IMG/VR virus record: IMGVR_UViG_2537562231_000009
Span: 1 to 30,914 of that record
Length of the DNA stretch: 30,914 bases
Origin: a virus
Lineage: Duplodnaviria > Heunggongvirae > Uroviricota > Caudoviricetes
Direction: 5' to 3' (one strand)
This document shows, one piece after another, positions 9,889 through 10,565 of the stretch. Below the pieces are notes generated by a model. That model worked only from the letters and a program-made list of their open reading frames with translations. It was not told the origin of the DNA and did no database searches. The position numbers were made by a program, and so were the translations under genes. Numbering within the stretch: position 1 is the stretch's first letter; each line of letters opens with the position of its first letter.

Positions 9889-10565
9889 ATGGCTGTTCAA
9901 ATTTCTGTCGAAAACCTTTCCCCTGTTACCTATAACCAGATCCCCGTAATTACTACTGAACTGTTGGCTCACCTTTACGGAACAAAAATCAAAAACATTT
10001 CTGATAACTTTCTGAACAACACGACGCGATTCATGCCCGGAAAGCATTACTTTAAAATTGAAAAAACGAATTACGCGAGTTTAAGAACAGACCCGAAACA
10101 ATCGGGTTAGTTGGTAAAAATGCCCGCTCCCTCATCCTCTGGACAGAACGCGGAGCAGCCCGTCACGCCAAAATGCTCGAAACCGATCAGGCGTGGGATG
10201 TGTTCGAAAAACTGGAAGACTGCTATTTCAGCCAGTGCAAGAAAAATACTGGCAAACAAGAGAAGAGCACCAACGAGCTTTCCGCAAAAGAAGCAAACAG
10301 CCTTGTATGGTTATGGGATTATGCTAACCGCTCACAGGCATTATTCCGCGAACTGTATCCGGCGCTAAAACAAATTCAATCGAACTATTCCGGCAGATGC
10401 TACGACTACGGTCATGAGTTTTCGTATGTTATCGGAATGGCGAGAGATGTTTTAATCAACCACACACGAGATGTTGATATTAATGAGCCAGACGGACCAA
10501 CGAACCTTTCCGCATGGGTAAGGCTTAAGAACAAAGAGTTGCCGCCTTCACTGCATCGCTACTGA
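9889..10565 (+). pseudogene. ORF6N-domain antirepressor-like gene split by a frameshift at an A6 tract (10061-10066)
   Basis: Track ORFs 9889..10110 and 10173..10565 lie in different frames; frame 0 is open from 10062 and continues the protein (…GKHYFKIEK / [41 protein letters not shown]…); one additional A would fuse them. Confidence 0.55.

Follow-up and report, generated by a model that had tools for sequence, protein, structure and literature searches.

A Phi24B-type antirepressor gene split at a one-base homopolymer shortfall in an Escherichia coli lambdoid prophage contig

Introduction

Two open reading frames (ORFs) follow each other closely on the plus strand of an E. coli prophage contig, at 9889..10110 (73 aa) and 10173..10565 (130 aa), in frames that are offset by +2 (equivalent to −1) according to the ORF list and the sequence. 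This arrangement raises the question of whether the locus holds two genes, a single gene whose frame has been lost, or a single gene that is read through a frameshift. An earlier note on this DNA claimed that both ORFs would form one continuous ORF6N-type protein if a run of six A residues between them were seven. It named three possible causes: a decaying pseudogene, a sequencing or assembly indel, and a slippage-prone site that yields some full-length protein. Here, we address these possibilities through the domains, relatives and genomic setting of the gene. The window, by which we mean the whole stretch of 30,914 nucleotides analysed, is 100% identical to the entire 30,914-bp contig ADUM01000002.1 from assembly GCA_000184765.2, a draft of 2010.

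Results

Direct reading of the window places the tract G-AAAAAA-C at 10060–10067, with an A-run of six bases at 10061–10066. When one A is inserted, translation gives a single ORF of 225 aa. The coordinates of the earlier note prove exact, as do the junction letters that it predicted. Since the whole ant gene, encoding a Phi24B-type antirepressor with ORF6N and P22_AR_C domains (9889..10565, plus strand), measures 677 nt here and 678 nt in relatives, its frame is broken. The relatives carry the tract GAAAAAAAC (A7, codons E-K-N), while the window contig reads GAAAAAAC (A6). Within the 5′ ORF, residues 1–59 are authentic Ant and the last 14 (residues 60–73) are an out-of-frame read-through to a TAG codon. 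The rest of the authentic gene continues in the −1 frame at 10065..10565, also on the plus strand, beginning AAC GAA TTA CGC (N E L R). Translation in this frame could start at the ATG at 10173 at the earliest; this codon opens the 130-aa ORF with a complete P22_AR_C domain. By direct reading, the sequence before it, cgtcacgccaaaATG, contains no Shine–Dalgarno motif, which makes it unlikely that the C-terminal half is expressed on its own.

Pfam searches with the repaired protein detect ORF6N (PF10543) at residues 12–96, with 73.1 bits and coverage of model positions 3–86 of 86, and P22_AR_C (PF10548) at residues 125–197, with 103–104 bits, E = 8e-30 and coverage of positions 1–73 of 73. In the 73-aa product as written, ORF6N is matched at model positions 3–57 of 86 only. 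The ORF stops at position 57, and the break therefore lies inside a domain. Both domains share one uninterrupted ORF of ~225 aa in 14 of the 14 intact loci fetched, which is not the case in the window as given. Exact matching against the protein collection finds the repaired 225-aa protein, letter for letter, on ~128 other E. coli contigs. Together with the A7 tract in all aligned relatives, this argues against a chance juxtaposition of the two halves. Intact 678-nt homologues in RefSeq are labelled either 'phage antirepressor Ant' or 'P22AR C-terminal domain-containing protein'.

The ORFs of the window and the annotation of four related loci (L001, L002, L012 and L028) show that, in lambdoid and Stx prophages, ant belongs to the nin region, where ninE lies on one side of it and a roi-like gene of the KilAC/Rha type on the other. 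Isolated phages with this gene include Phi24B, Min27, Stx2a phages and Lahn2, among others. Ant of Phi24B (Stx2 phage vB_EcoP_24B, ADN68426.1) has 225 aa, as has the repaired window protein. The two are 92% identical over their full length, with residues 1–115 matching exactly, and they share the site between ninE and roi as well as the ORF6N and P22_AR_C architecture. The window copy differs by its A6 tract, which puts it out of frame as written, and by 19 substitutions, all after residue 115. The window prophage also differs from Phi24B in having no stx gene within the contig.

Deletion of ant in Phi24B reduced the activity of a late-promoter pR′ reporter after norfloxacin to 27–56% of wild type, complementation brought it back to 64–82%, and superinfection was unaffected (PMC3064807). 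The drop in reporter activity, with superinfection unaffected, suggests that Ant speeds derepression during induction (PMC3064807). By analogy with this 92%-identical protein, whose activity is known, the window Ant would be an antirepressor (PMC3064807). Fogg et al. found 82% identity between the Ant proteins of Phi24B and P22 over the last 104 residues (PMC3064807). The C-terminal domain of the window protein, as in P22 Ant, matches PF10548 end to end, whereas its N-terminal domain is ORF6N and not the N-terminal domain of P22. The genomic settings also differ, as the window gene lies in the nin region and the P22 type in the immI region beside late genes. Binding of the resident repressor by the window Ant is putative. 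A literature search on ORF6N antirepressors returned unrelated phages only, and a search on an antirepressor between ninE and roi of Shiga-toxin phages found none.

The spacer between ninE and ant is 275 nt long and is occupied by RNA elements, all of which score above the Rfam gathering score and lie on the plus strand. A c4-a1b1 target element (RF03163) is found at 9637–9689 (50.6 bits, gathering score 46.7), and an IsrK-like sRNA at 9650–9724 (76.6 bits) ends in an intrinsic terminator (9704–9719) and a T run. A C4-type antisense RNA (RF01695) is located at 9751..9835, with 75.1 bits against a gathering score of 45. Its two loop words, GTTTCGA (9794–9800) and GTGCTAA (9807–9813), each have two perfect 7-nt complements, on both sides of the C4 element. 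The upstream pair lies at 9675–81 and 9690–96. The downstream pair is part of the ant leader (9840..9884) and consists of TTAGCAC at 9840–9846 and TCGAAAC at 9871–9877, the second of which ends 4 nt before the Shine–Dalgarno motif of ant (GAGG, 9881–9884). At the other end, an intrinsic terminator on the plus strand (10582..10603) closes the ant cassette.

The same order, in which C4 is flanked by a target pair on either side, the second just before the ribosome-binding site of the antirepressor, is present in immI of P1/P7 and in isrK–anrP of Gifsy-1. In P1/P7 immI, the C4 RNA blocks translation of the antirepressor operon. In contrast to immI, the window has no icd-like ORF between C4 and ant, and we take its antirepressor to belong to a protein family different from that of P1 Ant1/2. 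By analogy, the intact locus would be an antisense-RNA-gated antirepressor cassette, with predicted regulation of an already known kind. This C4/IsrK module is the more interesting biology at the locus, but it is already catalogued in Rfam.

Comparison of the tract length in related prophages, a check proposed in the earlier note, gave A7 in every relative read, including all 14 intact loci fetched (L001–L003, L017–L028). The locus L023, a Logan assembly of ERR4899398, carries A7; aligned to window positions 1–12637 over 12,638 nt, it shows 2 substitutions and 2 gaps of one base. L018, which also has A7, shows 4 substitutions and 1 gap in an alignment of 12,703 nt. The indels that separate L023 and L018 from the window fall at homopolymers only, namely the A-run of ant and a T7-versus-T6 difference at window position 9. 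With only 2–4 substitutions from A7 prophages over 12.6 kb, a real indel in the window would be extremely recent.

In complete genomes, A6 and A7 were told apart by the alignment span of a 101-nt query across the tract, read for the top matches and for evenly spread ones. In a set of 5,426 complete RefSeq E. coli genomes, this query matched 165 records, with a best identity of 99.0% over a span of 102 nt. The best 60 of these 165 records and an evenly spread sample of 60 all span 102 nt (one record, 103 nt), and the 101-nt span that corresponds to A6 is absent among the ~100 distinct records of the 165 that these two sets comprise. Shorter megablast queries of 40 and 41 nt, in which every 28-mer seed spans the tract, returned no match; the A7 positive control likewise returned none, presumably as a result of low-complexity masking. 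More diverged ant alleles have no A run at the position of the tract. For the remaining part of the window, 13–30.9 kb, the complete-genome set contains no near-identical relative (at least 99%).

At window positions 9–15, nine bases from the contig end, T7 stands against T6 in three relatives (L010, L011 and L023). This difference is consistent with consensus homopolymer errors in the ADUM assembly, as judged from sequence comparison.

Within the gene-position collection, the 73-aa A6 product is encoded on 6 contigs only. L006, the Logan assembly of SRR040456, has A6 and aligns to the window over 5,075 nt without a mismatch, and its reads are probably from the same strain. Two further single-base deletions fall in short homopolymers of L006, and one of them disrupts the roi-like gene; this suggests that the reads are of an indel-prone kind. 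The long-read assemblies L004 and L005 (VIFR01000002.1 and VIFQ01000001.1) show 10–13 one-base homopolymer indels, nearly all of them deletions, per 4.8 kb relative to a complete O157:H7 genome, and their sequences indicate that A6 is almost certainly noise there. A6 is also read in L008, which is AJVV01 (E. coli O111:H8 CVM9574), and in L007 and L009, Logan assemblies of SRR094140 and SRR094962. When 1,816 nt of L007 are aligned to complete O157:H7 genomes, many of these match at 99.9% over 1,817 nt, so that L007 differs from them essentially by one base in length alone. A6 recurs in differing phage backgrounds (92–95% identical to the window), yet solely in old or indel-noisy data, and it is absent from the complete genomes and recent assemblies read.

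The CVM and ADU* drafts of 2010–2012 were, we presume, pyrosequenced. From the accession dates and the pattern of indels, we infer that the ADUM data are of the 454 type; a literature search on the platform and on strain CVM9574 found nothing usable. With flow-based chemistry, one or two homopolymer errors are expected in 30 kb of consensus, and no other gene in the 30.9-kb contig looks split. The split ant, NinB, Dam and Q 'genes' in the records of L004, L005 and phage YYZ-2008 (L027, FJ184280.1) are artefacts. The YYZ-2008 sequence has many one-base homopolymer indels, and its ant contains five indels as well as Ns.

A different N-terminal ant allele (L037, positions 2430–2445; also L038–L041 and L030) has T5 in place of T6, through a deletion, at the equivalent codon (about 55). 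It is found as ORFs of 61 and 160 aa in ~26 contig blocks which, judging by their accession series, appear to be recent and based on short reads, and its sequence suggests a real frameshift pseudogene in this gene family, passed on by inheritance. Further copies of ant are interrupted by IS1203 or survive only as partial ORF6N fragments.

Two sets of candidates for further A6 cases were rejected. The members P0006 and P0005 of the 130/160-aa cluster have the other N-terminal allele, which lacks the A run, and reflect the T5/T6 event. The 130-aa product is present on 8 contigs, of which L013–L016 start 18 nt upstream of the internal ATG; the 130-aa ORFs of contigs that start there are assembly breaks and not genes. 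The conserved linker between ORF6N and P22_AR_C (window ~10125–10190) is a mosaic junction, at which N- and C-terminal modules are shuffled among phages, and L013–L016 and L031–L036 start at or near window position 10155. Short-read assemblies break at this linker because the N-terminal half and the RNA module are multi-copy in many genomes.

The contig as a whole is a lambdoid prophage with cIII, an immunity region, O/P, the nin region, Q, hok/sok, a type I methyltransferase/S moron, tRNAs, lysis genes, terminase, capsid and portal. Rfam identifies the lambda cIII thermoregulator (495–553, minus strand), the sok antitoxin RNA beside the hok gene (12613–12787), three tRNA genes downstream of Q (17020–17266), STnc100 (18039–18240) and the anti-GcvB sRNA AgvB (18241–18302, minus strand). 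The moron at 13065–16564, between Q/hok and the tRNA cluster, comprises an HsdM-type methyltransferase (type I restriction-modification-like) and a specificity subunit. Its S gene varies, being partial and split in L010, 930 nt long in L011 and 364 aa long in the window. Near the contig end, window positions 30562–30914 align to relatives (L011, 41821–42575) at four offsets 162 nt apart, which implies that the portal gene contains a tandem repeat with a unit of 162 nt (54 codons). RefSeq marks the portal gene as 'frameshifted' in both complete-genome relatives.

Discussion

We consider it moderately probable that the lesion is a homopolymer miscall in sequencing or assembly. The contig would then carry a Phi24B/Stx-phage-type ant whose frame is broken solely since its A7 tract reads A6, the apparent A6 having arisen through an under-call of homopolymer length in the 2010 draft ADUM01000002.1, and the real gene would probably be intact. 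For the window's strain, we infer an erroneous A6 call and not a private mutation. Counting against a miscall, A6 is read in the deposited assembly as well as in the Logan assembly, which is independent of it, so that most reads presumably call six bases. The genuine homopolymer frameshifts known from sequences of the ant family also count against it. A private −1 deletion is, for these two reasons, a serious rival, which we hold to be possible though on balance unlikely. It would have occurred very recently in an A7 tract, by replication slippage, and would make ant a pseudogene in this strain. A truncated 73-aa ORF6N fragment would be made, the P22_AR_C half would remain essentially untranslated, and the boost that Ant gives to induction would be lost while the other genes stayed intact. 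Runs of seven A residues are generally known as mutational hot spots, the two assemblies of the strain's data agree on A6, and natural inactivation of ant is seen in the T5/T6 allele, the IS1203 insertion and the partial ORF6N pseudogenes. A lysogen could moreover tolerate the loss of an antirepressor or even benefit from it. Against such a deletion, A6 occurs in none of the ~100 of 165 complete-genome records read and in none of the 14 intact loci, and it is confined to old or demonstrably indel-noisy assemblies.

Of the explanations considered, the one that treats the ORFs as naturally separate genes, one for a short ORF6N protein and the other for a P22_AR_C protein independent of it, is hardly credible. 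Entries for a 130-aa 'phage antirepressor Ant' have been deposited in databases, but the contigs behind those of this sequence begin 18 nt ahead of the internal ATG. Furthermore, the break falls within ORF6N, at position 57 of the 86-position model, no Shine–Dalgarno motif precedes the internal ATG and the fused 225-aa form is the norm. A homologue that ends near residue 73 and is followed by an independent gene, which the earlier note had named as evidence against a single gene, was not seen among the homologues. Functional recoding at a genuine A6 tract, with low-level synthesis of full-length Ant through a −1 slip of tRNA-Lys or addition of an A by RNA polymerase, is very improbable. A slip of tRNA-Lys on A_AAA_A, from the AAA at 10063–65 to that at 10062–64, would be followed by AAC GAA TTA and give ...KIEKNELR..., exactly the intact protein, and A-rich runs are generally known as slippery sites, as in dnaX and IS elements. 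As a −1 slip would restore the wild-type sequence exactly, trace leakiness is conceivable. However, the zero-frame codons are ATT GAA AAA ACG, with no X_XXY_YYZ heptamer, so that a single-tRNA A_AAA slip alone is possible. Direct reading finds no Shine–Dalgarno-like or GGAGG-like element 6–17 nt upstream, and the sole downstream hairpin (10091–10107) begins 24 nt past the run, compared with 5–9 nt at programmed −1 sites. The 74-nt downstream fold, at −15.5 kcal/mol and z = −1.29, is unremarkable. The shifted arrangement is also unconserved, given that all intact homologues have an in-frame A7 and diverged alleles lack the A run. Six A residues are, in addition, fewer than efficient transcriptional slippage requires. 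Runs that support transcriptional slippage or phase variation typically have at least 8–9 bases and vary in length among close genomes. The run measures 6 bases here and 7 in relatives, and no 101-nt span is present in the sampled complete genomes. Still more improbable is the specific case in which A6 is genuine and slippage on A_AAA_A would supply wild-type Ant at about one-hundredth of the dose, as a leaky antirepressor atop the C4 antisense control. The slip-dead form of the tract would read GAGAAGAC.

Of the three causes put forward in the earlier note, the sequencing or assembly indel, which we favour, and the pseudogenising deletion thus both stand, while a site kept for slippage finds no support, with in-frame A7 in the relatives, no stimulatory elements and no conservation of the shifted state. 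Homopolymer frameshift pseudogenes and miscalls of flow or nanopore sequencing likewise consist of a one-base change in a run of 6–7 bases within an otherwise intact conserved gene. The same class of difference is found at window position 9, throughout L004 and L005 and in L006, and nothing sets the lesion of the window apart. Both the gene and the type of lesion are already known; this is an ordinary lesion in a known gene, with nothing new in kind whichever cause holds.

The finding carries little biological weight and serves mainly as a caution for annotation. The contig should carry an intact ant gene, if A6 is an error, or a flagged pseudogene, rather than one protein named 'ORF6N' and another named 'antirepressor'. 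Should the deletion prove genuine, the analogy with the ant knockout of Phi24B (PMC3064807) would lead one to expect less efficient induction of this prophage than of its A7 relatives.
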